Shown here: in pieces, positions 7,294 to 63,298 of the stretch | How positions within the stretch are numbered: position 1 is the stretch's first letter | Layout of the letters: every line of letters begins with the position of its first letter | NCBI GenBank assembly: GCA_963724765.1 | Contig: CAVRVY010000004.1 | Location: forward strand, 992,001-1,056,000 | Length of the DNA stretch: 64,000 nucleotides | Source of the DNA: an uncultured delta proteobacterium | GTDB lineage: Bacteria; Desulfobacterota; Binatia; Binatales; Binataceae | Reading direction: 5' to 3' | Translations under genes and position numbers: made by a program | The notes under the pieces: model-generated | The model's input: only the letters and a program-made list of their open reading frames with translations | Database searches by the model: none | What the model was told of the DNA's origin: nothing

Positions 7294-9156
7294 CTACGAC
7301 AGCTCCTCTACTGACTTCTTTTCGAGCGCCCGGCCTATCGCATAATCCATGATTCTCTCGGCAAATGGCGTCGTGAGCTGGTTTAGCTCTTCGACCAAAG
7401 CTGAAATATAAGCACGATCTGTACCATTTCGAGCCTCTTCCAGCTTCGACGCGCATTTCTCTATCTGCGCCCGCTCATCCGCCTCAATTAGCGACCTATA
7501 TTCCTCTAGCTGCTTCGTCAATGCGCCTAGCAGTTGGGCAGCATCGTTGCGCGCCACAATCAGCATCCGCTGCTCGAGATCCTGCTCGCCCAAATCAATC
7601 GATTCTTCAAGCATCCGTTCAATTTCTTCGTCGGTCAGCCCATAGCTCGGCTTGATGTCAACCGAATGCTCCCGCCCGGTGCGCTGGTCGCGCGCTGTGA
7701 CGTTGAGGATTCCGTTGGCGTCAATGAGAAAGGTGACCTCGATCCGCGGCAGGCCGGCCGGCTGCGGCTCGAGCGGTCCCAGCTTGAAACGCGCCAGCGA
7801 GCGGCAATCCGCGGCCAGTTCGCGTTCGCCCTGGACCACGTGGATATCGACATGAGTCTGATTATCGACCGCGGTCGTAAAACCCTCCGTCACGCTGGTC
7901 GGGATAGTGGTGTTGCGATGGATAAGGCGCTCCACCACGCCGCCCATCGTTTCGATTCCAAGCGACAGCGCCACCACGTCGAGCAGCAGCACGTCACCCT
8001 GCGAGCCCATCAGGACGCCTGCCTGCACGGCGGCTCCAACCGCCACCACGTGGTCCGGGTCGAGCGAGCATAGCGGCTCGCGTCCGAAGAGGTCCGCCAC
8101 CCGCCGGCGCACCAGCGGCATCCGGGTTGATCCACCCACCAGCACCACCGCGTCGATCTCGGAGGTTTTTAGCCGGGCGTCGGCGAGCGCCATTCGGCAT
8201 CGATCCAGCGCACGGCCGACCAGCGCGTCGGCCATCAGCTCGAACTCGGCGCGGCTGATGGTTTTGCGCACCTCGCGATCCGGCAATCCAAGCGTCATCT
8301 CGGCTTCACCGTGATCGCTAAGCCTCTTCTTGACCGCCTCGGCCGCGAGCCGCGCGCTGTTCCAGACGTGGCGATCGAGCCGCAGCTCGGGCGAAAGATC
8401 GGCGAGCAGCAGATCGACCAGCAACCGATCGAAGTCGTCGCCGCCCAGATGCGTGTCGCCATTGGTCGCAAGCACCTCGAAAATCCCGCCCTTGATGTTG
8501 AGGATCGAGATGTCAAACGTTCCACCGCCAAGGTCGAAGACTGCGACCCTCCCCTCGGCCATCTGATTCAGTCCGTAAGCGAGCGAGGCGGCGGTCGGCT
8601 CGTTGACCAGGCGCACGACGTCGAGTCCGGCAAGCCGGCCGGCGTCCTTGGTGGCCTGACGCTGGCCGTCGTTGAAATAAGCCGGGACCGTGACCACCAC
8701 GCGCTCGACTTTCTCGCCGAACGCGGCTTCGGCGCGGGTCTTGAGCGCGCGCAGAATCTCGGCGGAAATCTGCGCGGGGGTGAAAGCGCGTTTGCCGATC
8801 GCGAAGCGCACCACCGACCCCGTGAAATCGCCGAAGCTGTAGCGATGGCGGTCCTCGGCGGCAACCTCGTCGCCGCCCAGCCCCATGTAGCGCTTGACCG
8901 AACGCACCACGGCACCCGCCTCACCGCCCTCGAAGCCAGCGGCGTGGATGCGGCCGTCGCGTTCAACAGTCAGATGCGGCTCCATCGCAATCGCTCGCTC
9001 ACCCACGAAAATTTCGCCCTGAGGCGTTATCGCGACCACCGAGGGCAGCAACGGATTGCCGGTCTCGGGATCGGCGGCAAGCCGCGGGCGCTCGCCTTCC
9101 ATAACAGCGATCAGGCTGTTGGTGGTTCCGAGATCGATGCCGAATATGCGAGACAT
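7294..9156 (-). CDS. hscA: Fe-S assembly Hsp70 chaperone HscA
   Basis: [40 protein letters not shown]; follows hscB; start placed at MSRIFGID. Confidence 0.92.
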
Positions 9157-9214
9157 GGGTAATGATGCGCTCCGCGGCCGCCGCGCGGTCCGGAAAGCGG
9201 CTTGCGCTATTTCC

Positions 9215-9865
9215 TCAATTGGTCTTTGTATCGGCCGTGGCGCCATCTAGCGCGCGGTCGACGTCGCGAGTGAGCGTCCGCAGATAGGCGATTTTCGAAA
9301 GTGCGGATTTCAATTCGTTGACCAGTTCCTGACGCTCCCCCGCCCCACTGTCCCAGCGCGCAAAATTGCGCTCCAGCTCCTCCTGCGCCTTGGTTACCAG
9401 ACCCTCAAGCTCCGCGCGCCGCTCATTCATCGCCGCGGCGAGCGCGCTGGCGTTTCCGTTGTGCGTTCCGCGCAACTCCCCGAGCTGTTCCTGTATCTCG
9501 AATACCAGCTCCGCCAGCTCGGCCGGGACCCGCTTGTTGTTCTCGGCGAGCTTCTCGTCGATCAAATCCAGCCAATAACGCCCCCGGCTTGCCGGGTCAC
9601 GTAGGGTGCGGTAGCTGCGGGTCAAAAGCGCCGTGCTCTTGAGGCTCGCCTGTCTAACTGTGGGCGTCCCCGTCGCAAAATGGTCGGGATGAACGCGGCG
9701 GCCCGCCTCATGATAGATACGTTCGAGTTCACACGGATCGAGGGCGAGCTTGCGTGGGAGATCGAGCGCGGCGAAGAGATCGAGCTCAACGCCGAGCGGC
9801 GCCCCGCATTCGGGGCAAGTCAAACGCGGCTCGCTTTGCCGCGCGCATGAGGGGCATTGGACCAT
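9215..9865 (-). CDS. hscB: Co-chaperone HscB with N-terminal CxxC..CxxC domain
   Basis: J-domain HPD motif, YRTLRDP..R..Y; isc operon position. Confidence 0.9.
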
Positions 9866-9889
9866 CGCTACGCCTTGATTCCCACGTCG

Positions 9890-10204
9890 TCATACGACGA
9901 ACGATTCTCCGCATCCGCACGTCCGCTTGGCGTTGGGGTTGACCACCTTGAAGCCCGAGGCCATCAGTTCCTCGGAGTAGTCGAGTTCCGAACCGTTGAG
10001 ATAGAGGAAACTCTTCTTATCGACGATGAGCTGCGCGCCATCGCGCTCGAAAATCTTGTCGCGCTCCTTGGGATCGTCAAGCTCCATCCGGTATTGCAAG
10101 CCCGAGCATCCGCCGCCGACAACCTTCACCCGCAGACCCTTTCCCGGTTTCTCGGCCGAGAGCTGCTTGATCTTGGAGACCGCATTTTCAGACAGCAAAA
10201 TCAT
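9890..10204 (-). CDS. iscA: A-type Fe-S carrier IscA (HesB family)
   Basis: GGGCSGLQY and CGCGESF; ATG at 10204 (the ORF track over-extends it). Confidence 0.93.
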   Translation of the reverse strand: MILLSENAVSKIKQLSAEKPGKGLRVKVVGGGCSGLQYRMELDDPKERDKIFERDGAQLIVDKKSFLYLNGSELDYSEELMASGFKVVNPNAKRTCGCGESFVV

Positions 10205-10233
10205 TTTTTTAGCGCCGCACGCCCGGCTCACGC

Positions 10234-10680
10234 CTACGAGCCCTGAGCGGCCTTGCCAGCTTGCGCGCCGTTCCCGTCGCTGGCCTCGCCAGCCGCAGTT
10301 GCGCCCTTGCGGCTGCGCCAGTCGGTGATCGCCGCCTTTATAGCATCTTCGGCCAGCACCGAGCAGTGAATTTTCACCGGCGGAAGATTCAATTCCTTCA
10401 CAATCACGGTGTTCTTGATCGCCATCGCCTCGTCGATATGTTTGCCCTTGACCAGCTCGGTTACGTAGCTGGAGGAGGCGATCGCGCTGCCGCAGCCGAA
10501 GGTCTTGAAGCGCGCGTCCTCGATTACGCCGGTGTCGCTGATCCGGAGCTGAAGCTTCATCACGTCGCCGCATTCGGGCGCGCCGACCACGCCAGTGCCG
10601 ACGCCGGGATCGTCCTTGGCGAAGCTGCCGACGTTGCGCGGATTGTTATAGTGCTCGAGAACTTTATCTGAATAAGCCAT
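10234..10680 (-). CDS. iscU: Fe-S scaffold IscU
   Basis: MAYSDKV..HY.NPRNVG, APECGDVM, FKTFGCGSA, LPPVKIHCS. Confidence 0.97.
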   Translation of the reverse strand: MAYSDKVLEHYNNPRNVGSFAKDDPGVGTGVVGAPECGDVMKLQLRISDTGVIEDARFKTFGCGSAIASSSYVTELVKGKHIDEAMAIKNTVIVKELNLPPVKIHCSVLAEDAIKAAITDWRSRKGATAAGEASDGNGAQAGKAAQGS

Positions 10681-10695
10681 GACCCCTCCGGTCGC

Positions 10696-10741
10696 CTAGC
10701 CTCTGGTTACGCCCGCCACTAGCCTCTGGTTACGCCCGCCA
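10696..10741. repeat. Perfect 23-bp tandem duplication spanning the iscS stop codon
   Basis: CTAGCCTCTGGTTACGCCCGCCA at 10696-10718 and 10719-10741. Confidence 0.95.
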
Positions 10742-11947
10742 GTTGACGGATTTAAGATCGATTCCCTCGCGCGCCATCTCGTATAGCGGCGACATCTCGC
10801 GCAGCCGCTTGACCTCGCGCGAGACCCGCTCGGTTACGAAGTCGACTTCTTCCTCGGTGTTGAAGCGGCCCACTCCGAAACGGATCGAGCTATGTGCCAA
10901 TTCCTCGTTGGTGCCGAGCGCGCGAATCACGTACGACGGCTCCAGCGTGGCCGAGGTGCAGGCCGAGCCCGAACTCACCGCCACGTCGTTGACACCCATC
11001 AGCAGCGACTCGCCCTCGACGTAAGCGAAGCTGACGTTGAGATTGCCGGGCAGGCGCTCGGTCGGATGGCCGTTGAGATAGACTTCGTCGAGACGCTCGA
11101 ACAATCCCGCCTGCAGCTTGTCGCGCAGCGAACGCATCCGCGCCGCCTCGCTCTGCATCTCCTGGCCCGCAATTTCGCATGCCGCGCCGAAGCCCACGAT
11201 ACCCGGCACGTTGAGCGTGCCCGAGCGCATCCCGCGCTCATGGCCGCCGCCGTCGATAATCGGCGTCAGGCGCACGCGCGGCCCCTTGGCCCGCACATAC
11301 AAAGCGCCCACGCCCTTGGGTCCGTAAAGCTTATGCCCCGACATCGCGAGCAGGTCGATACCGTCGCGCTCGACATCGAGCGGAATCTTGCCCACCGCCT
11401 GCACCGCGTCGCAGTGGAAAATGATGCCGCGCTCCTTAGCGATGCGTCCGATCTCGCGGATCGGATGAATCGTCCCGACCTCGTTGTTGGCGTACATGAT
11501 CGAGATCAACATGGTCTTGTCGGTGATCGCGTTGCGCACGGCGTCCGGGTCGACCATCCCGTACTTGTCCACCGCAAGATAGGTCACGGTCGCCTTGCCC
11601 GCGCGCTCCAGCGCCCGGCAACTATCGAGCACCGCCTTGTGCTCGGTGACGCAGGTGATGATGTGGTTGCCCTTGTCCTTGTAGAACTCGACAACCCCCT
11701 TGATCGCCTCGTTGTCGGACTCGGTCGCGCCGCTGGTGAAAATGATCTCTTTGGATTTGGCGTTGATCAGCGTGGCTATTTGGTTGCGCGCCTTGTCGAC
11801 CGCCTCCTCAGCCTCCCATCCAAAGCTATGATTGCGGCTGGCCGCGTTGCCGAACTTCTGCGTGAAGTAGGGCAGCATCGCCTCGAGCACCCGCGGATCG
11901 ACCGGCGTCGTCGCGTGATTGTCCATGTATATCGGCAGCTTGACCAT
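10730..11947 (-). CDS. iscS: Cysteine desulfurase IscS
   Basis: [18 protein letters not shown] (PLP Lys), SSGSACTS (catalytic Cys), MSPLYEM. Confidence 0.97.
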
Positions 11948-23632: not shown

Positions 23633-24595
23633 CTAGGCGGACGGCGCTTGCGCGCGGGCTTCGTCCGCGCCGAGCGCCGCGAGCTGGCGCGCCAGCTCGC
23701 GCATCAGCGCAAGCCCGGCGACGCCGCGGCACTCGGCGAGCTCGATTATCGGCGCGTCGATGCGCCGACGCACCAGCGCGAGCGCGCGGCGCTCGCCGCC
23801 CGCGCGCCTAAGCTCGGCGTGCGCCAGGGCGGCGAGGCCGTCGAGATGCGGCGCGGCGGCGCGCAGCGCCGGCCGCCGCCGCAGACGCGCGAGCGCTCCC
23901 GCGTCGAAGCGCGGCTGGCGCGTGCGGTTGAAAATCACCGCGGCGACGTCGAGACCGAGGGTGCTGAGCGCCGCGTGCGTCTCAAGCGTCTCGCTTACCG
24001 CGAACGGCTCGGGCGAGGTCACGAGCACCACGCCACAGCGCGCGGGGTCGCGCAGCAACTCCGAGACGCGATCGGCCGTGCGGCCGACGATCCCCGCGCC
24101 AAAGGTCTCGCGCGCCGCCAGCGGCATCCGCAATACGCTCAACGCCTGCCCGGTTGCGGGAGCGTCGAGCACCACTAGGTCCCACGGCGGCGCGGGCGGC
24201 CGATACTCCAACTCGTGGTAGATTTTCCCGATCATGATCAGCTCGCGCAGCCCCGGCGCGGCCTCTACGAAGTAGCGGTAAGCGCCGCTGCTGACCACCG
24301 CCTTGAGCATCGCACGGCTCGGCATCACGGTGAACAGGTATTCTTCGAGCTGATGGGCCCCGTCGAGAACCACCGTCCACAAACCCGGTGCGGCTTCGGC
24401 CGGATCGAAACCGGGCTTACGCCCCATCGCGGTTGCGAGCGCGCCGAGCCGGTCGTATTCCATCGCGAGCACGCGGGCAGGGCGGGACTGACCGGCGGCG
24501 CGCAGCATCGCTAACGCGCCGCTCACGCTCGTGCGTCCGACACCGCCCTTACCGACGACGATCAGCGCGCGGCGTCTCAGTAGTTCGTCGATCAT
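23633..24595 (-). CDS. ArsA/Get3-family ATPase with degenerate Walker A
   Basis: GKGGVGRT, APGLREL..IGK, DAPATG, PEP..V.ET. Confidence 0.85.
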   Translation of the reverse strand: MIDELLRRRALIVVGKGGVGRTSVSGALAMLRAAGQSRPARVLAMEYDRLGALATAMGRKPGFDPAEAAPGLWTVVLDGAHQLEEYLFTVMPSRAMLKAVVSSGAYRYFVEAAPGLRELIMIGKIYHELEYRPPAPPWDLVVLDAPATGQALSVLRMPLAARETFGAGIVGRTADRVSELLRDPARCGVVLVTSPEPFAVSETLETHAALSTLGLDVAAVIFNRTRQPRFDAGALARLRRRPALRAAAPHLDGLAALAHAELRRAGGERRALALVRRRIDAPIIELAECRGVAGLALMRELARQLAALGADEARAQAPSA

Positions 24596-24622
24596 CTATC
24601 GATCATCGATGACACGCCATAC

Positions 24623-25483
24623 TTAGAGAAAGCGGCGGCCCTGGCGTTCGTCGGGCAGGTCTAGCCCGAGTGCCACAAGCTTGCGATCCACGTATTCCTT
24701 GTACGCCGCGCGAATCTCGGAATTGCCGACGCCCTTGAGGCCCCATTGGATAAAGCGCGGCGTGTTGGGCGAGTCGGAGCGGCCGAACATGTCGAGCGCC
24801 GCCGAATACCATTTCGGCAGCAGCGCCTGGGCGAGCGCTCGGCCGCGGCGCTCGGCGCAGATCGCCCTCAGAAAATGGTAGCCCATCTCGGAGTGGCCAA
24901 ACTCGTCGCGCTCGACCGTGCGCGAAATCTTGCGCAGCGGCGCATAGCTCGATTCGCGCCAGTCGCGGGCATGAAAGGCGCCGTTGAGATCGATCAGGAA
25001 GTGAAAGAAGGCGTCGTCGGCCCAGGTGTTCTTGGGCAGATGGAACGCGTAGTGCGCATAGGGCACATCGCGCAGCGCGAAGTCCGAGTCCAGGCCGACC
25101 GCGATCCGATGGAACATGATTGCGTGCTTGAGTTCCTCGGCCAGGTACTCCGACTTGACGAGCCGCGCCGCGGGATTGGGCGCCAGCGTCTCGGCCACCT
25201 CGATACACGTACCCATCAGGCCGAGAAAACTCTTGTTGCCGGCGCGCTCGCCCTCGTGGCGCAACATCTTCAGCAGCAGGCCGCGGTAGTCCTCGGGCAG
25301 ATCGTCGCCCTCCTCGAAGTTGTGCTCGGGGCGGTCGACCTTGCAGGAGAGATCGGGCAGCGGATCGCCCTGGGCATAAATATGCGTCCAGAACGGCCAC
25401 AGCCCGCCGCCGCGCACGCGTTCGCCGCGCTCGACCGCTTCGTCCTGCGCGATATCGTCTGGGTGCAAATCGTTGAGCGCCAT
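24623..25483 (-). CDS. PaaA/BoxB-like ferritin-fold di-iron oxygenase subunit
   Basis: EELKH and DEFGH ExxH motifs, FLIDLNG, SSYAPL, WY..ALDMFG, WGLK...N..IR; GAGG RBS before ATG 25483. Confidence 0.8.
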   Translation of the reverse strand: MALNDLHPDDIAQDEAVERGERVRGGGLWPFWTHIYAQGDPLPDLSCKVDRPEHNFEEGDDLPEDYRGLLLKMLRHEGERAGNKSFLGLMGTCIEVAETLAPNPAARLVKSEYLAEELKHAIMFHRIAVGLDSDFALRDVPYAHYAFHLPKNTWADDAFFHFLIDLNGAFHARDWRESSYAPLRKISRTVERDEFGHSEMGYHFLRAICAERRGRALAQALLPKWYSAALDMFGRSDSPNTPRFIQWGLKGVGNSEIRAAYKEYVDRKLVALGLDLPDERQGRRFL

Positions 25484-25536
25484 ATTGGCTTCCTCTGCTG
25501 GAATCGCTCGCTCGAATCTATCGCGCCGCGCCCCGC

Positions 25537-25824
25537 TCACGCAAAACGGGCCCTGGCGGCGGCGGCGCGTTCGGGATCGATCGCGCCGGCGCGTTCGGCC
25601 TGGAAGCCGCACGCGCATCCGGCCAGGCCCGCCGCGTAGAGATCCATTTCGCCGTCGGCCAGCTCGCGGGCCATCCCCGGCAGCAACTTATCGCCGACGC
25701 ATCCGAGCATTGCGCCGCATCGCGCGCATCGCAGCCGATAGTACGTGTCATAGGTGGCGACGCCTTCGATCGACACGCCGAGCGGTTCGTAGGCCGCGCG
25801 GATCTCATCAAGAATCGCGCTCAT
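25537..25824 (-). CDS. Small Cys-rich hypothetical protein (CxxC...C...CxC)
   Basis: 95 aa, translationally coupled to the ligase through a TGATG overlap. Confidence 0.75.
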   Translation of the reverse strand: MSAILDEIRAAYEPLGVSIEGVATYDTYYRLRCARCGAMLGCVGDKLLPGMARELADGEMDLYAAGLAGCACGFQAERAGAIDPERAAAARARFA

Positions 25825-27521
25825 CAAAGTTTACCGTTCGCTTTGCGGCTTGACGCCGCCTCTGCTTTTTTCGCGCCGATTTCGCGCGCCAGCCTGGCCA
25901 CGATGTCGGCGCGCAAATCCTTCTTCGAGATCTTCCCCACGGCGGTCATCGGAAAGCGCTCGACGATTTCCAGGCGCTCGGGAATCTTGAAGCGCGCGAT
26001 ACGCCGTCCTTCCAGATGGCGCGCCAGCTCCGCGAAGGTCAGGCTCCTGCCCGCACGCAGCACTACGTATGCGCAAGCGCGCTCGCCCAATACCTCGTCG
26101 GGCATCGCGACGATCGCCGCATTGAGCACCGCCGGATGCGACAGCACCCGGTCTTCCATTTCCTCGGCGCTGATCTTCTCGCCGCCGCGATTGATCACGT
26201 CCTTGCGCCGTCCTTCGACGACCAGGTTGCCGCTCGGATGCATCATCACGAGGTCGCCGGTGCGATAGAAGCCGTCAGGCGTGAACGCGCCGCGATTGTG
26301 TTCCTCGGCGCGGTAGTAACCGCGGGGCGTATAGGGCCCGCGGCAGAGCAGTTCGCCGACCTCGCCCGGCGCGACCTCGCGGCCGTCGTCGCCGATCACA
26401 CGCAGCTCGTCGTGATCGCAAATGGGACGGCCCTGCGTGTTGACGACCACTTCCTCGGGATCGCCGCGGCGCGTCGAACAGCACAGACCCTCGGCCATCC
26501 CATATACCTGCGTCACGACCGGGCCGATTTCGCTCAGGAGGCGGCGCGCAGGTTCGGGATTGAGCCGCTGGCCGCCTACCGCCAGCGATCGCAGCGAGGA
26601 AAAATCCGTCTGCGCAAAGCGCGGATCGTTGAGCCAGCTCACCGCCATCGCGGGCACCGCGCAGATCCAGGTCACGCGCTCGCGCTCGATCAGCGGGAAG
26701 ACCGTTTCGGCCTCGGGCGACGACGCCAGCACGATTCGCGCGCCGAGCAGAATCCCCGATTGCACCGCGCCCAGCAGCGGGAAGTTGTGCATCATCGGAA
26801 TCGCGACCAGCGCGACGCCGTCGCGGTCGAAGCCCGAGCACTCCGCCAGGCGCAACGAATTGTATAGATAGTCGTCGTGCGTGCGCGGGATCACCTTCGG
26901 CAGCCCGGTGCTGCCGCCCGAGAGCTGGAAGACCGCGATCTCGTGGCTTTGCGGGCGAAGCCGCGCTAGCGTGGACGGCACGATTCGCTCCTCGATTGGA
27001 TCATCGAGGAGGTCAGAGAGCAGTGTCATCCCGGCGCCCGCACGCGCGCCCATCACGAATACCTCGCGCATCGCCGGCAGCGCGTCGCGCAACTCGTCCG
27101 CCATCGCAACGTAATCGAAGCGCCTATAATCGGCAGGGATGAGCCAGGCGTAGGCGTCGGTGAAGCGCGCGAGATGTCCGATCTCAGTGTGGCGATGCGC
27201 CGGCAGAGTCGCGACGGGAATCGCGCCGGTCTTGAGACAAGCGAAGTAGGCGGCCACGCATTCAAGGCCATTGGGCAACTGGAAGATGACGCGCCGGCCC
27301 AACGCGACGCCGCGCTCGGCGAAATGGAGCGCGAGCCGCTCGACCATCGCGCCCAGCTCGCGGTAGGTGATGCGCCGCGTGCCGTCCACCACGGCCAGGC
27401 GTGCTGCGTTGTACGCGACCGATCGGTCGAAGTGCTCGCCAATCGACTGGCCGCGCCAGTAGCCCAGTTTTCTATACAGTTCCGCGGCCGACTCCGGCCA
27501 CGCCACCACGCCATCGAGCAT
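25824..27521 (-). CDS. Aryl acid adenylating enzyme (EntE/DhbE/MbtA-like AMP-binding ligase)
   Basis: QLSGGSTGLPKVIPRTHDDY, HNFPL, QVYGMAEG, YRTGD, RGGEKI, GKISKK. Confidence 0.9.
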   Translation of the reverse strand: MLDGVVAWPESAAELYRKLGYWRGQSIGEHFDRSVAYNAARLAVVDGTRRITYRELGAMVERLALHFAERGVALGRRVIFQLPNGLECVAAYFACLKTGAIPVATLPAHRHTEIGHLARFTDAYAWLIPADYRRFDYVAMADELRDALPAMREVFVMGARAGAGMTLLSDLLDDPIEERIVPSTLARLRPQSHEIAVFQLSGGSTGLPKVIPRTHDDYLYNSLRLAECSGFDRDGVALVAIPMMHNFPLLGAVQSGILLGARIVLASSPEAETVFPLIERERVTWICAVPAMAVSWLNDPRFAQTDFSSLRSLAVGGQRLNPEPARRLLSEIGPVVTQVYGMAEGLCCSTRRGDPEEVVVNTQGRPICDHDELRVIGDDGREVAPGEVGELLCRGPYTPRGYYRAEEHNRGAFTPDGFYRTGDLVMMHPSGNLVVEGRRKDVINRGGEKISAEEMEDRVLSHPAVLNAAIVAMPDEVLGERACAYVVLRAGRSLTFAELARHLEGRRIARFKIPERLEIVERFPMTAVGKISKKDLRADIVARLAREIGAKKAEAASSRKANGKL

Positions 27522-44384: not shown

Positions 44385-45299
44385 CTATACCGGCGCAGGC
44401 TTGCGCGGCGACGGTGCGAGACTTGCGCGATGGCCCCAGATGCTCGGGGCCTCGTGCTTTTGCACCTGCCAGGTCGCGTCGTCGACGATCCGCGCGCCCC
44501 ATCCGTACTCGACCTCGAAGCCAGACGGCGTGCGCAGGTAGAACGACATCATGTGATCGTTGGTGTGGCGCCCAATCGTGCCGGAAATTTCGACGCCCTG
44601 GTCCTGGCAGAGATAGTAAGTCGATCCAACGTCGTCCACGTGACGGCACTGCAGCATGAAATGCATCAAGCGCTTGGGCGCCGGGATGACGCCGAAGGCG
44701 ATCGAGTGATGGCGCGGGTTGCAGTGCATGAAGGTCAGGCTGATCGAATCGCCGCCGCGACGCGACCGCATGTCGATGAAGTCGCTGATCTTGAGGCCCA
44801 GCAGGTCGCGGTAGAAGCGCAGGCTCTTGGCCGAATCGTCCACGCGCACCACGATATGGCCCATCCCCAGCTCCCCGGTGACGAAGCCGGAAAGCGGCCG
44901 CGACGATTTGAACGGATGCTCGAAAGTCATCAGCGGCCCGAAATAAATCTCGGTCGGGATGCCGCTTGGGTCCTTGAGCTTCAGGTACTCGACCACGCGC
45001 CGCGCGCGCGCCTCCTGCGGTGTGGCCGCCGTGACCTCTACCCCGTCGGCCCGCAGCCGGGCGGCGATTTCGTTGAGCGCCGCCTGGTCGCGGACCTCCC
45101 ATCCGATGAACGCGAGGTCGTCGGCGCCGCCCGGCTGCAGGATGAATCGATGGTGGTACTCGTCCATCCTGAGAAACGTCGAGCCGTCCGCGTCGGCGCC
45201 GTTGACCTCCAGGCCGAGCACGTTGGTGGCGAAGTGCTCCCATAGCGCCAAGTCACTGACGCCGATACCCAGGTAGCCCAGTTGTGTCACACTCGCCAT
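44385..45299 (-). CDS. Type I extradiol ring-cleavage dioxygenase (BphC/HsaC-like, VOC fold)
   Basis: LGYLGI, GMGHIV, CNPRHHS, LMHFM, GRHTND, SFY..TPSGFEVEYG. Confidence 0.92.
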   Translation of the reverse strand: MASVTQLGYLGIGVSDLALWEHFATNVLGLEVNGADADGSTFLRMDEYHHRFILQPGGADDLAFIGWEVRDQAALNEIAARLRADGVEVTAATPQEARARRVVEYLKLKDPSGIPTEIYFGPLMTFEHPFKSSRPLSGFVTGELGMGHIVVRVDDSAKSLRFYRDLLGLKISDFIDMRSRRGGDSISLTFMHCNPRHHSIAFGVIPAPKRLMHFMLQCRHVDDVGSTYYLCQDQGVEISGTIGRHTNDHMMSFYLRTPSGFEVEYGWGARIVDDATWQVQKHEAPSIWGHRASLAPSPRKPAPV

Positions 45300-45355
45300 C
45301 GCGCTCTCCTATCGCGCTCTTCCTGAGCCGGCGCCGTCGCGAACGATCCGCCCGG

Positions 45356-46456
45356 TCACAGGCTCAAGTGGTAAAGCTCGGCGACGTTGTCGTGGAGGAT
45401 CTGGTTCTTTTCATCCTCGCTCAGCTCCGCCGTGTGCTTCTTGAGCAGTTCCTGCGACCAGGGCCAGGTCGAATCGCTGTGCGGGAAGTCGTTGGCCCAC
45501 ATCAGGCGGCGGAAGTTGCACATGTCCTTCATCTTGAAGGCTACCCAGTCGTCCTGGAACGTCAAATAGATATTCTCGCGAAAATACTCACTGGGCATCT
45601 TTGAGATCGTGCCGGCGGTGAGCCAGTAGCGATGGCGGTCGTAGGCGTGATCCATCCGATACATATAATGCGGCGCCCAGCCGGCGTCCGCCTCGACACA
45701 CACGATCTTGAGCCTGGGATGGCGCTCGAAGACGCCGCTTAAGATGAGCGTCCCGATGATGTCTTGGTTGCCGCGGATGATCGACATGAAGCTGTTGAGC
45801 TTGGGCCCGCGGCCGCGGCCAACCGCGTCATCGCGGCTGGTCAGGATGTGGAAGCTGAGCGGCAGGCCGAGGTCGATCGCGGCCTCCCAGAATGGATCGT
45901 AGATCGGGCTGTCGTAGTCCTCGACCTGCGGATTGCCCGGCATCATCACGCCTTTGAGGCCCAAATCCTTGATGCGCCGGAGGTCCGCGATACCCTCCTC
46001 GACCGAGCGCATCGCGGTCTGTCCCGTGCCGATGAGGCGGTCCGGATGAGCCGAGCAATAGCCGGCGACCCACTGGTTGTAAGCGTCGAAGCAGGCCTTC
46101 TTGTAATCGTAGTCCTTGTGATTGCAGAGCAACATCCCGACCGTCGGATAGATGATTTCGGCGGCGACGCCGTCGCGGTCCTGGTCGGCCATCCGCGCCT
46201 CGGGGTCCCACCCGCCGCGATGCAGCTCCTCGAACTTGACGCCGAGGAGCGTCAATTCGTGGGCGGCCTTGCCGGCGGCCGCGATCAACCCCATCGGAAT
46301 CGGCCGCGACATCCCATCGATCATGAACAGGTCGCCCTTGCGATCGTCGCGCACCATGTGCGGGGCGCGATCCCTGAACTTGGGATCGATGTAATCGATA
46401 TAGGCGTTTGGCGGTTCGGTGATATGCGAATCCGCAGAGATAATGGGTTTTTGCAT
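45356..46456 (-). CDS. Amidohydrolase_2 family protein
   Basis: SADSH, DQDRDGV.AE..YPT, SFHI, FERHPRL, WANDFPH.DSTWP. Confidence 0.9.
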   Translation of the reverse strand: MQKPIISADSHITEPPNAYIDYIDPKFRDRAPHMVRDDRKGDLFMIDGMSRPIPMGLIAAAGKAAHELTLLGVKFEELHRGGWDPEARMADQDRDGVAAEIIYPTVGMLLCNHKDYDYKKACFDAYNQWVAGYCSAHPDRLIGTGQTAMRSVEEGIADLRRIKDLGLKGVMMPGNPQVEDYDSPIYDPFWEAAIDLGLPLSFHILTSRDDAVGRGRGPKLNSFMSIIRGNQDIIGTLILSGVFERHPRLKIVCVEADAGWAPHYMYRMDHAYDRHRYWLTAGTISKMPSEYFRENIYLTFQDDWVAFKMKDMCNFRRLMWANDFPHSDSTWPWSQELLKKHTAELSEDEKNQILHDNVAELYHLSL

Positions 46457-49169: not shown

Positions 49170-49955
49170 TCAGCTCTTGAGAAACTCCGTCACCACCTTG
49201 TCGAACTCGGCCGGCTGCTCGTACATCACCATGTGTCCGGCTTCCTTGATCGTGTGCACGCGGCTGTTGCGGATGTGTTTCTTAAACTCGCGCGCATATA
49301 CGGGCGGGATCACCTTGTCGGATTCGCCCCACAGCAGCAGCGTCGGCGCGGCGATCCGATAGGCGCGTTTTTTCAGCCCGCGATCAGGAATCGGCCACAG
49401 GAACTTGCTCGCCGTCGAAAAGCGCTTGGTGCGCTCGACGTACATCGCGGTCACCAGTTCCTGGTCGTCCCACGGCATCGCAAGCATCATCTGCGCCAGC
49501 GGCGACTTGGGATCGTGGAACAGCATCGCCGGCAGATCGTCCAGATCGGTGGCGAATAGATCGGGGATCGGATCGTTTTCGAGCCAGAAGCCGGCCGCCC
49601 CGACCAGCACCAGCTTCTTCGCCCGCCGCGTGTCGAGCGCCGCCACTTCCGCCGCCAGCATCCCGCCCATCGAGTGGCCGACAATGTTGGCGCTGGGAAT
49701 TTTCAGCTCGTCCATCAGCTCATGGTAAAACAGAGCCGCGTCGATCACGTCGTCGATATGCTCGCCGCCGGTCGATTCGCCGTAGCCCGGCAGATGCGGC
49801 GCGTAAACCTTGAAATTGCGGCCGAGGTCTTCGAGGAACGGGTCGGCTCCTGTGAGTCCGCCCGCGCCATGAAGAAACAGCAGCGGCTCGCCCTTGCCAG
49901 TGACTTCCATCTCGACGGAAAACTTCCCGTCGCACAGTTTCTGATGTGTTTTCAT
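49170..49955 (-). CDS. Alpha/beta fold hydrolase
   Basis: LHGAGG, GHSMGG, WGESD, AGH; overlaps the LLM stop codon. Confidence 0.9.
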   Translation of the reverse strand: MKTHQKLCDGKFSVEMEVTGKGEPLLFLHGAGGLTGADPFLEDLGRNFKVYAPHLPGYGESTGGEHIDDVIDAALFYHELMDELKIPSANIVGHSMGGMLAAEVAALDTRRAKKLVLVGAAGFWLENDPIPDLFATDLDDLPAMLFHDPKSPLAQMMLAMPWDDQELVTAMYVERTKRFSTASKFLWPIPDRGLKKRAYRIAAPTLLLWGESDKVIPPVYAREFKKHIRNSRVHTIKEAGHMVMYEQPAEFDKVVTEFLKS

Positions 49956-51253
49956 TACTTCACTGAACTCCTGGTTTCGGACGCGTTCGGCTTCCGCGTC
50001 TTGCCGTTGGTCATTGGAGGCTCGAACGAAATCGGCGCCGGCATCGCCATCTCATTGGCCGGCAGGCGCTTGGGCGACCACTTGTCCTCGAAGCCGGTCC
50101 ACAGGTCGCGCATATGCGGCATCACTTCGCGCGCGAACAACTCGGTGCTCTTGCGCACCAGCTCGGGCGGCATCGAACCGATTTGCTGCAGGATCATCAG
50201 GTGGCCGCAGTTGAGGCTCTTGAGCGCCTCGCGCAGACGATCACGCACGGTGGCCGGCGAGCCGGCGATCACGTAACCGTCGTTGATGAAGTCCTTCCAG
50301 GTAAGGCCTTCGCGGGTGATCGAGGCGTTCTTGCCGACCTGGCCGGTCAGCCCCGCCTTGATCGTGCTGGGCGTGCGGTAGCCCGGCGCGTCGGCGAAGC
50401 CGGGATAGACGTGCAGGCAGCGATTGTAGAAGTAATCCATGTGCGAAGCGTAGTCGCGCTCGGCCTGCTCGTCGGTCTCCGAGACCGCAACTACCTGGGC
50501 GAAGCCGAGGCTGTAGGGATTGAGCTCCTTGCCCTTCTTCGCCATCACGTTCCAATATCCGTCGGCGACCTTCTTGCCGGCCTTGTAACCGAAGAACGAC
50601 AGGAACGAGTACTGGTAGTCGTGATCGGCGACGAAGTCCCAGGTCTCGACCGAGCCGCCGCCGGGAATCCAGACCGGCGGATGGGGCTGCTGGAGCGGCT
50701 TGGGCCACAAATTGACGTAGCGCAGCTTGGTGAACTTGCCGTTGAAGGAGAACTGATCCTTTTCCTTCCACGCGCGGATAATCAGATCGTGCGCCTCGAA
50801 GTACTTCTCGCGCAGCGTGGCCGGGACCTCGCCGTAGCAAAAGTTGGTGTCCATCGAGGTGCCGACTGGAAATCCGGCCACCAGGCGCCCGCCGCTCAGC
50901 ACGTCCAGCATCGCGAATTCCTCGGCCACCCGCACCGGCGGGTTGTACAGCGCGATCGAGTTGCCGAGCACGACCAGGTTGGCGTTATGCGTGCGCCGGG
51001 TCAGCGCCGCCGCCATGATATTCGGCGAGGGCATCATGCCGTAGGCGTTCTGATGATGCTCGTTGACGCCGAGGCCGTCGAAGCCCATGTGGTCGGCGAA
51101 CTCGAGCTGATCGAGGTAGTCGTTGTACAGCCGATGGCCGACCTTGGGATCGTAGAGGTCGCGCGGGATATCAACCCACACGCTGTGATACTTCTTCTTG
51201 AAGTCGTCGGGCAGGAAACGGTAGGGCATCAGGTGAAACCACGTAAATTTCAT
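49955..51253 (-). CDS. LLM-class flavin-dependent monooxygenase
   Basis: NEHH, PSPN, RVAEEFAMLD..SGGR, PKPLQQPHPP, GSPATV. Confidence 0.92.
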   Translation of the reverse strand: MKFTWFHLMPYRFLPDDFKKKYHSVWVDIPRDLYDPKVGHRLYNDYLDQLEFADHMGFDGLGVNEHHQNAYGMMPSPNIMAAALTRRTHNANLVVLGNSIALYNPPVRVAEEFAMLDVLSGGRLVAGFPVGTSMDTNFCYGEVPATLREKYFEAHDLIIRAWKEKDQFSFNGKFTKLRYVNLWPKPLQQPHPPVWIPGGGSVETWDFVADHDYQYSFLSFFGYKAGKKVADGYWNVMAKKGKELNPYSLGFAQVVAVSETDEQAERDYASHMDYFYNRCLHVYPGFADAPGYRTPSTIKAGLTGQVGKNASITREGLTWKDFINDGYVIAGSPATVRDRLREALKSLNCGHLMILQQIGSMPPELVRKSTELFAREVMPHMRDLWTGFEDKWSPKRLPANEMAMPAPISFEPPMTNGKTRKPNASETRSSVK

Positions 51254-51300
51254 AAGCCAATCTCCTTTGGAGAGTGCGGTCCTTATTTAATCATGCACGC

Positions 51301-52149
51301 CTAATCATCCAGCGGCGATATGCTCCGGCGCGTCTGCATCGTGCGCTCCGCCGCTCCGTCAGGTAGATCCGTGAAAGCGCCGCCGCGCCAAGTCTTGCCG
51401 ACCTTGCCAGCATTGACGCTGCGCCTCCCGCGCGCGGGCGGCGCTGACGGCAAGGGCAATGATTTGACCGGGCCGGCATTCGAGCGCCGGGGCCGCTGGG
51501 CAGCGGCCTCTGCGGCGGCCAGCTGGAACTCGAAGGTCTCCTCCAGCAACCGCGCCGCCTCGAGCCCGGTTATATCCCGGAAAATTTTCACGTCGTCCAT
51601 CAGCAGGAACGCGCCATTGAGCGCAGCCCATATCACGGTCGCCGCGCGCGTGGCGTCGGCGCTGGAGGTGCGCGCCCCGGTGGCGTTCAACCAGCGCTTG
51701 ACCGAATCGCGATAAAGCTCGAAGCACTCGCGGCCAAGCTTTCGGACTTGCTCGAAATGCTCCAGCTCTTCGGCGCGCGACAGGCGCAGCGACAGCTTGC
51801 TGAAGGTGACCGAGAGCTGGGCGAGGAACAGTCCGCGCGACTCGCGCAGGTAGTCGAAGTAGGCGTTGCCGATCGCGCGCACTTCGTCGCGCGGCTTGAG
51901 GCCGCGCGCATGGATTTCCAGATAGCGCTCGCGCAGCTTGCCAATCCGCCCGGCCATCAGACTGACGAAAAGATCGTCGCGCGAGAAGAAATAAAGATAG
52001 ATGGTCCCGACGGCGACCTCGGCCTGGCGCGCGACCATCTCGACCGTGGCGCCGTCGACGCCGTGCTCGGCGAAGACCTGCGCCGCGGCGGTGAGGATGG
52101 TCTCGCGCCGGGCGAGACGCTCGCGCTCCTTGCGCTCGCGAACGCTCAT
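51301..52149 (-). CDS. TetR/AcrR family regulator
   Basis: RERKERE..RR..IL.AA..VF...G....TVE.VA..AEVAVGTIYLYF. Confidence 0.9.
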   Translation of the reverse strand: MSVRERKERERLARRETILTAAAQVFAEHGVDGATVEMVARQAEVAVGTIYLYFFSRDDLFVSLMAGRIGKLRERYLEIHARGLKPRDEVRAIGNAYFDYLRESRGLFLAQLSVTFSKLSLRLSRAEELEHFEQVRKLGRECFELYRDSVKRWLNATGARTSSADATRAATVIWAALNGAFLLMDDVKIFRDITGLEAARLLEETFEFQLAAAEAAAQRPRRSNAGPVKSLPLPSAPPARGRRSVNAGKVGKTWRGGAFTDLPDGAAERTMQTRRSISPLDD

Positions 52150-52157
52150 ACTGTCTG

Positions 52158-52173
52158 CTGAATCTTCATTCAG
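52158..52173. promoter_or_regulatory. Probable TetR autoregulatory operator
   Basis: Palindrome CTGAAT-CTTC-ATTCAG 8 nt upstream of the TetR ATG; TTGACA on the minus strand at 52210-52215. Confidence 0.6.
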
Positions 52174-52342
52174 TTTCTGAAGCAGACTTCTACCGCCAAA
52201 CCATCCGAGTGTCAAACACCAGAAGACGCCCCTTGCCGTAACCAAGCAAGTCGCTGGCAGGCTGGCAAACAGAGGGGAATGAGGGTCGACCAACTAGGAT
52301 AAGGATCCTAAGCAATTCTAGGCCGCGCGGGCCGAATCGATT

Positions 52343-56334: not shown

Positions 56335-57525
56335 ATGGCGCAGGGTAAAATCGAACCGTTTAAGATCGAGGTCTCCGACGAGGTGCTGACCGACCTCCGC
56401 GCGCGCCTGGAGCGCACGCGCTTGCCCGACGAAGTGCCCGGCTCGGCGTGGGACTATGGCGCCAACCTCGCCTACCTGCGCGAGCTTATCGAGTACTGGC
56501 GCACGCGCTACGACTGGCGCGCGCACGAACGCGAGCTCAACCGCTTTGCGCACTTCCGCGCCGAAGCCGGCGGCGAGGACCTTCACTTCATCCACGAGCG
56601 CGGACGCGGCCCTAACCCCAAGCCGCTGCTGCTGCTGCACGGATGGCCGGGGTCGGTGTACGAGTTCATGGATCTGATCCCGCGGCTGACCGATCCGGCG
56701 GCGCACGGCGGCGACGCGCGCGACTCATTCACGGTGGTCGCACCGTCGCTGCCGGGCTACGGCTTTTCCGCCCATCCGCGCACGCGCGCGATGAACATCC
56801 AGGCCATCGCCGACATCATGTTTAAGCTGATGAACGGGGCGCTCGGCTACGATCGTTTCGGCGCGCAGGGGGGAGATTGGGGCGCGGCGATAACCTCGCG
56901 CCTGGGCGAAGTCTACGGCCAGCATCTCTACGGCATCCACATCAACATGGTCGCGGTGGGAGCAGCCGAGGGGCGGCGCCCGGCCGAACTGAACGACGCG
57001 GAGAAAGTCTTTCTCGGCGACCTCGAACGTTTTCGCCGCGACGAGACCGGCTATCAATGGATCCAGGGCACCAAGCCGCAGACCCTGGCGTACGCGCTCA
57101 ACGACTCGCCGGCGGGGCTTGCGGCATGGATCGTCGAGAAGTTCCGCACCTGGAGCGATTGCCACGGCAACATCGAGCGCCGCTTCAGCAAGGATCAGTT
57201 GCTGACCAACGTGATGATCTACTGGGTGACGGGAACGATAAATTCATCGACGCGGCTGTACTACGAGGCGCGCCATCATCCGTGGCATCTGAAGCCCGAC
57301 ACGCGAATCGAAACGCCGACGGCGGTCGCCAATTTCCCCGCCGAGCTGATGCGGCCGCCGCGGAGCTGGGCCGAGCGCGCCTACAATATCGTGCGCTGGA
57401 CGGTGATGCCGTCGGGCGGCCATTTCGCTGCAATGGAAGAGCCGGCGCTGCTCGCCGACGACATCCGCGCATTCTTCCGCGAGCTGAGCCGTTCTTCCGC
57501 GAGCGGAGATAAGAGCGCGCGCTAA
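56335..57525 (+). CDS. Epoxide hydrolase (EHN + alpha/beta hydrolase)
   Basis: PFKI...L.DLR.RL, YDWR..E..LN, HGWPGS, QGGDWG, DSPAGL, GGHFAA.E. Confidence 0.94.
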   Translation: MAQGKIEPFKIEVSDEVLTDLRARLERTRLPDEVPGSAWDYGANLAYLRELIEYWRTRYDWRAHERELNRFAHFRAEAGGEDLHFIHERGRGPNPKPLLLLHGWPGSVYEFMDLIPRLTDPAAHGGDARDSFTVVAPSLPGYGFSAHPRTRAMNIQAIADIMFKLMNGALGYDRFGAQGGDWGAAITSRLGEVYGQHLYGIHINMVAVGAAEGRRPAELNDAEKVFLGDLERFRRDETGYQWIQGTKPQTLAYALNDSPAGLAAWIVEKFRTWSDCHGNIERRFSKDQLLTNVMIYWVTGTINSSTRLYYEARHHPWHLKPDTRIETPTAVANFPAELMRPPRSWAERAYNIVRWTVMPSGGHFAAMEEPALLADDIRAFFRELSRSSASGDKSAR

Positions 57526-62464: not shown

Positions 62465-63298
62465 TCAGGCCGTGAACTCGACCACCGCCGCTCCGCTGCC
62501 CCAAATCGAGCCGTAGCCGAGCACCTTGCCTTTGACCTTGCTCGTGACGCGTCCGGAACCGATCGCGCCCATAAGCCAGTAATAACTCTTGAATTGCATA
62601 TCGGCGCCGGTCTTTGCCGCATACTCGGGCACCAGGTCCATCGCGTCCATGGCTTTTCCGGCGGCTATCAGATCGAGCAGCTTGCGGTTTCCGGCATCGT
62701 CCTCTTCGTTGACAATCCGATCTTCGTCGTCGGAAATCTCGCGCGTGAAATAATGGCCCGAAAGGCCGGTCGACGCGACCACTACGGCGCGCCGGCCGAG
62801 CGCGCACACCGCGTCGGCGGCGGCTTGACCGAGCTTCAATTCCTCGTCGCGTCCCGAATAGATGTTGCATGAGATACAGACGACGGGGATTTCATTTTTC
62901 GGATTGAGAAAGTTAAGCGCCACCAGCGTTCCGGTGTCCACCGGGAAACCTTCGTAGTCCACCGGACGCACCTGGAGGCCGGCGGCCATGCCGAGATCGA
63001 TCGTCCTGCGCGCGAGTTCGAGATCAGTGCGAAAGTCGTACGGCAAGTTGCCGAGGTCGTACCAGTTCTCATCGACGTGCAGCCCCGTCGGATTCGGGCG
63101 CGCCTGCACCAGGTGGCCGAGCACGGAAACCCACTGCGTACTGAAGATGACCAGCACGTCGGGCCGCGCCTCCTGTGCGTTGGCGCCGGCCACACGGCAG
63201 GCGTCGCGTAACTCGCGGCGGGCCGCCGACTCGGTCGGCAGCATCACGTGCGGCAGGCCCGGCATTATGTAGCCCTTGACGATTTGGCCCTCAGGCAT
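62465..63298 (-). CDS. amnA: 2-aminophenol 1,6-dioxygenase alpha-subunit-like (LigB family)
   Basis: PDVL..STQW, HVDENWY, YEGFPVDTGT, EDRI.NEEDD, GYG...GSGAAV.EF. Confidence 0.8.
   Translation of the reverse strand: MPEGQIVKGYIMPGLPHVMLPTESAARRELRDACRVAGANAQEARPDVLVIFSTQWVSVLGHLVQARPNPTGLHVDENWYDLGNLPYDFRTDLELARRTIDLGMAAGLQVRPVDYEGFPVDTGTLVALNFLNPKNEIPVVCISCNIYSGRDEELKLGQAAADAVCALGRRAVVVASTGLSGHYFTREISDDEDRIVNEEDDAGNRKLLDLIAAGKAMDAMDLVPEYAAKTGADMQFKSYYWLMGAIGSGRVTSKVKGKVLGYGSIWGSGAAVVEFTA

Follow-up and report, generated by a model that had tools for sequence, protein, structure and literature searches.

We analysed a 64,000-nucleotide stretch of DNA (hereafter the window) from an uncultured delta proteobacterium of the Binataceae (contig CAVRVY010000004.1, positions 992,001 to 1,056,000), a placement backed by the names attached to homologs. 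On its minus strand four genes stand head to tail and encode, in this order, an aryl-acid ligase, a 95-aa (amino acid) cysteine protein, a di-iron protein and an ATPase. We propose, with a probability of about 0.5, that this operon specifies a di-iron oxygenase of two parts as well as the ligase activating its substrate, and that the oxygenase, equipped with a new metal-binding module as partner, would act on an aryl-thioester. An earlier note on this DNA had put forward a unit of ligase, cysteine protein and oxygenase acting on aryl-coenzyme A (CoA). The conserved unit is narrower than that: its core consists of the small protein and the di-iron protein, the ligase is frequent but not obligatory and the ATPase is found in Binataceae only. 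From the behaviour of their genes, the two core proteins very probably form a complex.

A small cysteine protein paired with a di-iron protein

The features of the two core genes are the following (window coordinates; Cys4 designates the four invariant cysteines of the small protein).

25537..25824, minus strand: 95-aa Cys4 protein, partner of the di-iron protein (83 homologs, invariant Cys4, fusions)
25717..25728, minus strand: first Cys pair, C33-A-R-C36, at a beta-hairpin turn (alignment and AlphaFold2 model)
25609..25617, minus strand: second Cys pair, C70-A-C72, in the loop ahead of helix 74-82 (alignment and AlphaFold2 model)
24623..25483, minus strand: divergent PaaA-like di-iron (ferritin-like) oxygenase subunit, 286 aa (PF05138, PaaA structure and profile matches)
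25124..25138, minus strand: first ExxH motif (E117, H120) in EELKH, residues 116-120 (invariant in 25 sequences; aligns with PaaA DEAGH)
24893..24907, minus strand: second ExxH motif (E194, H197) in DEFGH, residues 193-197 (invariant in 25 sequences; aligns with PaaA EESFH)

The four genes of the operon are spaced by -4, 53 and 27 nucleotides (nt). The stop codon TGA of the ligase gene shares bases with the ATG of the small open reading frame (ORF) in a TGATG overlap that reads ...CTTTGATGAGC... The di-iron ATG (25483) lies 53 nt past the stop of the small ORF and is preceded by a ribosome-binding-like stretch, GAGGAAG; that of the ATPase (24595) lies 27 nt past the di-iron stop. This gene order with its coordinates, overlap and gaps, like the two ExxH motifs and the ligase motif HNFPLLG, had been described in the earlier note and is borne out in the sequence. 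Promoter and terminator scans within the operon gave nothing above shuffles.

To describe the pair we used a pattern scan, with one genome per species, which gave 76 loci from Binataceae and Rokubacteria/Methylomirabilota, plus single contigs labelled otherwise; neighbour genes at these loci were called with a GC3-based ORF picker. At 66 of the 76 loci the small gene is directly followed, on the same strand, by a PaaA-like gene. Three others (L037, L048, L056) have the PaaA-like gene close to the small gene in another order, at two the contig ends, and five (L023, L034, L035, L039, L040) have no PaaA-like gene in the flank. Fusions make up 15 of the 66 pairs: a single uninterrupted ORF in which the small protein is the N-terminal domain, joined by a linker of variable length (~10-25 residues) between GCxCG and the WPFW stretch of the di-iron protein. 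They come from some Rokubacteria/Methylomirabilota, and fused forms are also present in the protein libraries (P0211, P0212, P0215). In a set of 41 related genomes, 16 have the small protein, and exactly these 16 also have an ortholog of the di-iron protein, which is split into pieces in two of them (G002 and G003); G010 has neither. Gene fusion and strict co-occurrence are thus strong evidence for one protein complex.

Two irregularities of the pair can be mentioned here. At G006:C42:155760-156641 a di-iron ortholog, 68% identical, contains two in-frame TGA codons, either because the copy is decaying or because of a fault in the assembly. At L015 and L019 an insertion of ~770-780 nt parts the small gene from the di-iron gene and carries an ORF of 97-109 aa on the opposite strand.

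The 95-aa protein has five cysteines, C33-x-x-C36, C42 and C70-x-C72. Four of them (C33, C36, C70 and C72) are invariant in 88 sequences of the family and C42 is not; the small ORF therefore has homologs with conserved cysteines, a point on which the earlier note had made its idea depend. The search at E <= 0.01 gave 83 homologs, 58-92% identical, and the protein is present in 15 of the 16 other genomes of the genus; with the same query it was found in none of 8 genomes from other genera of the family and in none of 16 from the class. These homologs, and the presence in nearly every genome of the genus, mark the small ORF as a genuine gene of a narrowly distributed family and not a frame open by chance.

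It matches no Pfam and no NCBIfam family. A profile built from the 88 sequences and run against 1.84 billion representatives retrieved 40 proteins at E <= 0.001; those inspected, a set that leaves out the weak long matches P0234, P0237 and P0239, are members of the same family or fragments of them. The AlphaFold2 model is of high quality (predicted local distance difference test, pLDDT, 94.3; predicted template modelling score, pTM, 0.83) and consists of a helix, a three-stranded sheet and four helices. Searches with this model gave nothing convincing: the best Foldseek match has an E of 0.34, a wide VIA-align search reached at best a Z of 4.6 with a cyanophycin synthetase (60 residues aligned, root-mean-square deviation 3.0) and a second VIA-align search a Z of 3.4. 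An Atlas search returned unnamed clusters at 0.91-0.93. By hhalign the protein is unrelated to E. coli PaaB (probability 0.3%) and to E. coli PaaD (5.8%, over just a 10-residue CxxC stretch). On these comparisons the family is new, in that neither Pfam nor the searches for remote relatives by sequence and by fold gave it a match, although the absence of a fold match for the model does not show that the fold itself is novel.

The earlier note had offered two roles for this protein, a rubredoxin-like electron carrier or a metal-binding subunit. The fusions and the four invariant cysteines lend good support to the second. For the first, no likeness to rubredoxin turned up: the protein has no Pfam match, and so none to rubredoxin (PF00301), its motifs are CxxCG and CxCG and not CxxCG ... 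CPxCG, and no rubredoxin stands among the fold matches listed for the model by Foldseek and the two VIA-align searches. A redox role for the Cys4 site is possible but falls short of even odds.

The five loci that have no PaaA-like gene in the flank include two, 84-87% identical to each other, in which the small gene has another partner. In L034:7099-9051 and L039:5727-7584 an enoyl-CoA hydratase gene and the small gene are followed by a gene for a heme-oxygenase-like di-iron enzyme (PF14518, 39.6 bits), labelled 'iron-containing redox enzyme'. This arrangement suggests that the small protein can also work with di-iron enzymes of another, unrelated fold. Nearby at these two loci are genes for an extradiol dioxygenase and amidohydrolase_2.

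An oxygenase-type subunit and its proposed activating ligase

The di-iron protein belongs to PF05138 (PaaA_PaaC; 54.5 bits for a gathering cut-off of 28.5). It lies far below the cut-off of the PaaA equivalog TIGR02156 (56.6 bits versus 280), and this 286-aa protein gives no match at E <= 0.01 to the BoxB model TIGR03225 (cut-off 499.1). PaaA is nevertheless its best relative by sequence and by fold: PaaA structures match it at E ~1e-9 with HMMER, and hhalign aligns it with E. coli PaaA at a probability of 96.9% and 23% identity. The fold model of the fusion L063 (mean pLDDT 69.8, below 50 in the ligand helices), which serves for family assignment and not for domain packing, has as its best Foldseek match PaaA 3pw8_C (E 4.7e-8, probability 1.00), followed by SSO1313, BoxB and PaaC.

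Within its own family the protein is strongly conserved. Twenty-five sequences from two phyla are 67-94% identical to the window protein and share 120 invariant columns; the libraries hold 518 matches, and none of the best 120 falls below 70% identity. The invariant residues include H76-E77-G78-E79, E116-E117-L-K-H120, D165 and E191-R-D-E194-x-G-H197, so that all six metal ligands of the PaaA type (E, ExxH, D, ExxH) are kept and align with the PaaA motifs. Their retention indicates a subunit of the catalytic type and not of the ligand-less PaaC type.

The likeness to PaaA (PaaABCE; 3pvr, 3pw8, 4ii4) thus covers the ferritin-like fold, the six ligands and a conserved C-terminal FGxxD/SPN...W-LK stretch. 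Differences are nevertheless marked: identity is 19-23%, the family has its own N-terminal WPFW...GDPLP extension, the partners PaaB, PaaC, PaaD and PaaE are missing, and a Cys4 partner is present that Paa systems lack. BoxB offers a parallel in being a single di-iron protein for aryl-CoA with no PaaB/C-type subunits, but it has ~470 aa, and BoxA is a [4Fe-4S]/FAD reductase and not a 95-aa Cys4 protein. The reductant of BoxB comes from a loosely associated iron-sulfur protein, according to a passage of PMC4498308. In a quick tree the orthologs stand apart from E. coli PaaA and PaaC, the BoxB of the genome and paralogs from Binatia (SH-aLRT support 83), its deeper branches being poorly resolved; PaaA, PaaC and BoxB were represented by one reference each, and the paralog rows L099, L100 and L102 were mis-extracted and are to be disregarded. 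The earlier note had asked whether the protein nests within canonical PaaA; its score, its identity and a genome devoid of PaaB place it outside.

Stand-alone PaaA-like paralogs of 240-260 aa, 28-37% identical, occur in other Binatia (L096-L102), and the small Cys4 gene is found at none of these loci. Their neighbours include xanthine-dehydrogenase-family Mo-hydroxylase subunits (three loci), electron-transfer flavoprotein alpha/beta, AMP ligases, an enoyl-CoA hydratase and a hot-dog dehydratase.

The third gene of interest encodes the ligase.

25824..27521, minus strand: divergent EntE/DhbE-family aryl-acid adenylating ligase, 565 aa (AMP-binding and AMP-binding_C; below the cut-off of TIGR02275)
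26769..26789, minus strand: acyl-pocket motif HNFPLLG, residues 245-251 (alignment to DhbE HNYPLSS and 5wm2 HNFALAC)
26472..26492, minus strand: pocket motif EGLCCST, residues 344-350 (Cys-Cys at DhbE Val-Asn by alignment)

It matches AMP-binding (234.8 bits) and AMP-binding_C in Pfam and remains below the cut-off of the 2,3-dihydroxybenzoate (DHB)-AMP ligase equivalog TIGR02275 (559.5 bits versus 723.55). Its best solved relatives are the salicylate-AMP ligase 5wm2 (E 1.7e-154) and DhbE 1md9 (E 8.7e-152). Compared with EntE, DhbE and CahJ (1md9, 5wm2, 7tyb) it is similar over its full length (E ~1e-150) and retains the ANL core motifs as well as Asn-Phe in HNF; it differs by its pocket substitutions, by a one-residue deletion after the pocket loop and by the absence of an aryl carrier or nonribosomal peptide synthetase (NRPS) nearby.

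Following the DhbE literature, we take the pocket to be lined by Asn-Tyr/Phe, Ser/Cys, Gln, Val and Val/Leu-Asn; the corresponding residues were read from the alignments. The ligase does not keep the set common to DHB and salicylate enzymes. Besides the retained Asn-Phe, the last residue of HNFPLLG is Gly, where DhbE has Ser and 5wm2 has Cys; it is also Gly in L020, Ala in close Binataceae orthologs, and Rokubacteria orthologs read HNFPLAC. The Gln of LQVGG is replaced by Ala, Cys or Ile across the orthologs (Ala in the window), and Val/Leu-Asn by Cys-Cys (EGLCCST in the window) or Leu-Cys, the second Cys being present in all orthologs that show the motif. The pocket that the earlier note called salicylate-like is so for Asn-Phe, while three further positions differ from both salicylate and DHB enzymes. 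These changes suggest that the acid is probably an ortho-substituted aromatic one, other than plain salicylate or DHB.

A ligase ortholog (at least 55% identity) lies directly upstream of the small gene at 36 of the 76 loci, and fragments alone are seen in L012, L043, L053 and L085. True orthologs are 61-95% identical. In L043 a 48-residue remnant (7716-7859), 65% identical, stands just upstream of the small gene, at a locus where a UbiD-type decarboxylase and another ligase are encoded today; this suggests that the ancestral ligase was lost there.

An EntE-like aryl-AMP ligase feeding an aryl-CoA ring hydroxylase outside siderophore synthesis has a precedent in Streptomyces sp. WA46, whose CoA-dependent salicylate-to-gentisate pathway comprises a salicylyl-AMP ligase and a salicylyl-CoA 5-hydroxylase (PMC4600096). 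The passage of that paper concerned does not report the hydroxylase as di-iron, and the ligase pocket found here is not of the plain-salicylate type. We did not adopt a salicylate-to-gentisate pathway because no gentisate 1,2-dioxygenase over the cut-off is encoded in the genome (56 bits versus 442).

Genomic surroundings and the missing partners

The genome, 97% complete, encodes no PaaB (PF06243), no BoxA over the cut-off (best 30 bits) and no canonical rubredoxin, and the operon contains no PaaB, PaaC or PaaE gene. A sample of 121 genomes of the phylum yielded no canonical PaaA. A true BoxB (692.8 bits, cut-off 499.1) is encoded with BoxC and an adjoining AMP ligase at C4:1073192-1077332 (L089), on the same contig, ~18 kb past the end of the window and ~55 kb from the operon; with no BoxA over the cut-off, this canonical benzoyl-CoA epoxidase also appears to lack its usual reductase. 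Apart from the operon protein and this BoxB, the genome has a single PF05138 match, a distant paralog of 334 aa encoded on another contig. No PP-binding domain is found in the window; of the 11 matches in the rest of the genome, the one at C4:924207 comes closest, ~68 kb ahead of where the window begins, and NRPS and polyketide synthase (PKS) genes are present elsewhere. The claim that no carrier protein, NRPS, PaaB or BoxA lies nearby therefore stands, with the qualification that a true BoxB-BoxC pair is not far away.

The last gene of the operon encodes the ATPase.

23633..24595, minus strand: ArsA/Get3/BagA-like P-loop ATPase, 320 aa (PF02374; Binataceae-specific addition)
24527..24553, minus strand: deviant Walker A GKGGVGRTS, ATPase residues 15-23 (Arg where ArsA, Get3 and Rv3679 have Lys)

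It scores 71 bits against PF02374 (above 24.3) and stays below the cut-offs of TIGR00345 (72.1 bits versus 135) and of the BagA model NF053622 (84.5 bits versus 400). The nearest structure is M. tuberculosis Rv3679 (6bs3_A, E 5.1e-14), of the same ArsA/Get3 P-loop family. In contrast to the GKGGTGKS of Rv3679, the Walker A is GKGGVGR[TS]S in all 14 full-length orthologs, none having the canonical GKGGVGKT, and no BagB-like partner adjoins the gene. The conserved replacement of Lys by Arg suggests that the ATPase chemistry of this BagA-like protein has changed or been lost. The gene follows the di-iron gene at 21 of the 76 loci, all of Binataceae type, and is absent from 41 loci with at least 2 kb of downstream sequence; it stays with the operon where the next gene switches from a penicillin-binding protein (PBP1) to methylmalonyl-CoA mutase.

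In the window a class A penicillin-binding protein gene begins 93 nt downstream of the ATPase gene, and upstream of the operon, on the opposite strand, lie a gene for an M23 peptidase and then fabH and fabF. The wider window holds mostly housekeeping genes; aromatic-catabolism-type genes are scattered in it and none is contiguous with the operon. These are a BphC-like extradiol dioxygenase gene with amidohydrolase_2 (44385-46456), genes for a luciferase-like monooxygenase, an alpha/beta hydrolase and a TetR protein (49170-52293), an epoxide hydrolase gene (56335-57525) and two LigB-type dioxygenase genes (62465-63992). An ISC-type iron-sulfur assembly cluster (HscA-like Hsp70, NifU_N/IscU, IscS-like aminotransferase) is found at 7294-11947, ~12 kb from the operon.

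Neighbours vary among the other loci. At 10-12 Binataceae loci an alpha/beta hydrolase and a luciferase-like monooxygenase are encoded upstream of the ligase, which is not the case for the window operon. The window genes at 49170-51253 were considered as that pair; being only 37% and 31% identical to it, they are paralogs. Five ligase-less Rokubacteria loci have instead a divergently oriented UbiD/VdcC-type aryl-acid decarboxylase gene and a gene for another acyl-CoA ligase. At 12 Rokubacteria loci (L055, L061, L062, L066, L069, L070, L071, L073, L077, L080, L082, L085) a divergent protein of ~236 aa with a weak match to BPL_C (biotin-protein-ligase C-terminal, 26.9 bits) is encoded upstream of the pair. 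It recurs where the EntE-like ligase is missing, with L070 and L085, which have the ligase or a fragment of it, as exceptions.

The proposed reaction and its alternatives

Taken together, the system looks like a known oxygenase superfamily combined with a new, family-specific partner module, that is, a minimal form of aromatic-acid oxygenase. In the reaction that we propose, the EntE-family ligase would adenylate an ortho-substituted aromatic acid (neither plain salicylate nor 2,3-DHB) and hand it to CoA. The di-iron enzyme would then use O2 to hydroxylate or epoxidise the ring of the thioester, as PaaA and BoxB do. The small protein would bind one metal ion, Fe or Zn, through its Cys4 and sit on the di-iron subunit, where it would stand in for the PaaB/PaaC/PaaE or BoxA partners that the genome lacks for this enzyme. 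Most likely it would be the point of entry for electrons from a general cellular reductase encoded elsewhere, like the rubredoxin domain of rubrerythrin: with Fe the Cys4 site would receive electrons, with Zn it would be a structural and docking element. The ATPase may be a lineage-specific accessory, perhaps for maturation, outside the core.

The link to thioester chemistry is drawn because the ligase gene is coupled or adjacent, because other loci associate the pair with a decarboxylase and an acyl-CoA ligase, because an enoyl-CoA hydratase is encoded in L034 and L039, and because of the neighbours of the paralogs. From family resemblance and neighbourhood, oxygenation of an aryl-CoA is the most likely chemistry, and we put oxygenation of an aryl-thioester in general at even odds.

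Several observations weigh against this proposal. The chemistry would have to be carried over from PaaA at ~20% identity. The lysine bridge of PaaA is formed, according to a passage of PMC4498308, by Lys68 with Glu49, Glu72 and Asp126; in the HMMER alignment, which is weak in that helix and of low confidence there, Lys68 falls on the invariant Y113. No reductase gene is conserved in the neighbourhood of the pair. The metal of the small protein is at least as likely to be a structural Zn as a redox Fe, given the zinc modules among its weak echoes, its CxC motif and the lack of likeness to rubredoxin. EntE-type enzymes normally load carrier proteins, and a CoA-ligase activity in this clade would be a departure from that. 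The housekeeping surroundings fit a core or biosynthetic role as well as a catabolic one. Finally, a ligase ortholog is missing from 28 loci whose upstream sequence extends for at least 2 kb, and in five genomes where the pair, mostly fused, stands without it, the closest ligase found genome-wide is 31-38% identical. The co-conservation of three genes expected in the earlier note thus holds in part, almost always for the small and di-iron genes and at fewer than half of the loci for the ligase. Of the refuting conditions set in that note, none overturns its idea outright.

The proposal can also be extended. The small protein would then be a new class of redox or iron-delivery module for di-iron oxygenases of two unrelated folds, PaaA-type and heme-oxygenase-like. 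Together with its PaaA-like partner it would make up a self-contained ring oxygenase for aryl-thioesters, the smallest one known, and in Binataceae a channelling unit of ligase, adaptor and oxygenase with a re-purposed siderophore-type adenylating enzyme. The channelling is suggested by a rare ligase-small fusion (see below). We regard this extended form as tentative and, as a whole, rather unlikely.

The alternative that survives best, doubtful as it is, makes the small protein a purely structural Zn finger, either a subunit that assists assembly or stability in place of PaaB/PaaC or a platform on which a separate reductase docks, with a ferredoxin or reductase from elsewhere reducing the di-iron site directly. 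The model lends itself to this view, as the CxxC hairpin and the second Cys pair just before a helix are treble-clef-like. So do the weak sequence echoes, which are all zinc modules: at E <= 10 Pfam returned only such families (HVO_0758 mu-protein, E 0.012; Yippee-Mis18), and the weak leads of the Atlas search at 0.88-0.89 are Zn ribbons. The weak fold echoes are BIR domains (Z 2.4-2.8) and the Zn sites of MsrB and cereblon, and CxC is atypical of rubredoxin. But the pairing of one small protein with both PaaA-like and heme-oxygenase-like enzymes would be easier to explain by a generic role in redox or metal delivery than by a co-evolved structural subunit, and Zn and Fe are indistinguishable from sequence.

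It is improbable that the small protein is an adaptor or carrier which holds or channels the activated aryl group, non-covalently or as a Cys thioester, from the ligase to the di-iron site. PaaABCDE-like oxygenases of antimycin biosynthesis, which have carrier-protein-bound substrates, provide an analogy. The small gene does lie between those of ligase and oxygenase and overlaps the ligase stop, the oxygenase is fused to it at 15 loci, and P0241 (657 aa, two contigs) is an in-frame ligase-small fusion in which the small protein takes the place where adenylation domains bear a carrier domain. P0241 is however weak evidence, because a single base inserted in the TGATG overlap, naturally or by assembly error, would yield such a fusion. 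Moreover, the family has no invariant Ser, Lys or Thr, its sole invariant nucleophiles being four Cys that resemble one metal site; it has no similarity to PP-binding domains, and the pair persists without the ligase at at least 28 loci.

Still less probable is a rubrerythrin-like peroxide or oxygen reductase, or an iron-handling protein, to which the ligase would be linked only incidentally. In rubrerythrin and rubredoxin-dependent di-iron enzymes a mononuclear Cys4 metal module is attached to a di-iron four-helix bundle, and the pair mirrors this domain logic without homology, the Cys4 domain being N-terminal in the fused forms; the housekeeping surroundings and the very high conservation across two phyla would also suit such a function. 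However, the nearest relatives of the di-iron protein by sequence and fold are CoA-thioester epoxidases and not rubrerythrins or ferritins, its 286-aa body is larger and of the PaaA type, no similarity to rubredoxin in sequence or fold was detected, with CxC as the second motif, and linkage to ligases and CoA-processing enzymes recurs.

That the genes belong to known systems, either as part of a canonical epoxidase for phenylacetyl-CoA or benzoyl-CoA whose other subunits are encoded elsewhere, or as a siderophore loading enzyme (DHB/salicylate) with unrelated neighbours, is suggested by the automatic library names ('PaaA', 'PaaI', '2,3-dihydroxybenzoate-AMP ligase') and by the NRPS/PKS genes of the genome, but it is largely refuted and hardly tenable, since every equivalog model stays far under its cut-off, PaaB is absent from the genome and no canonical PaaA was found in the genomes sampled from the phylum, a true BoxB exists separately, tens of kb separate the operon from the closest carrier domain and the ligase pocket departs from DHB and salicylate enzymes at four positions.

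We found no description of the pair of small and di-iron proteins in the literature covered, which lies outside subscription journals, and the paper on Binatota genomes (PMC8262859) does not mention these genes in its main text. Public annotation is corrected accordingly for hundreds of proteins automatically named 'PaaA', 'PaaI' or 'DHB-AMP ligase'; the small gene is often unnamed or uncalled, and the libraries hold 83 small proteins for 518 di-iron ones.

The aerobic 'hybrid' degradation of aromatic compounds via CoA thioesters is known through two multi-component di-iron systems, PaaABCE and BoxAB. The family that we describe is a third, sharply distinct branch of the PaaA/BoxB superfamily, strongly conserved across two uncultured soil phyla. 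If its partner protein carries electrons or iron, it would represent a new solution to the reduction or loading of di-iron oxygenases, and the natural fusions would give a simple single-chain enzyme for study and biocatalysis.

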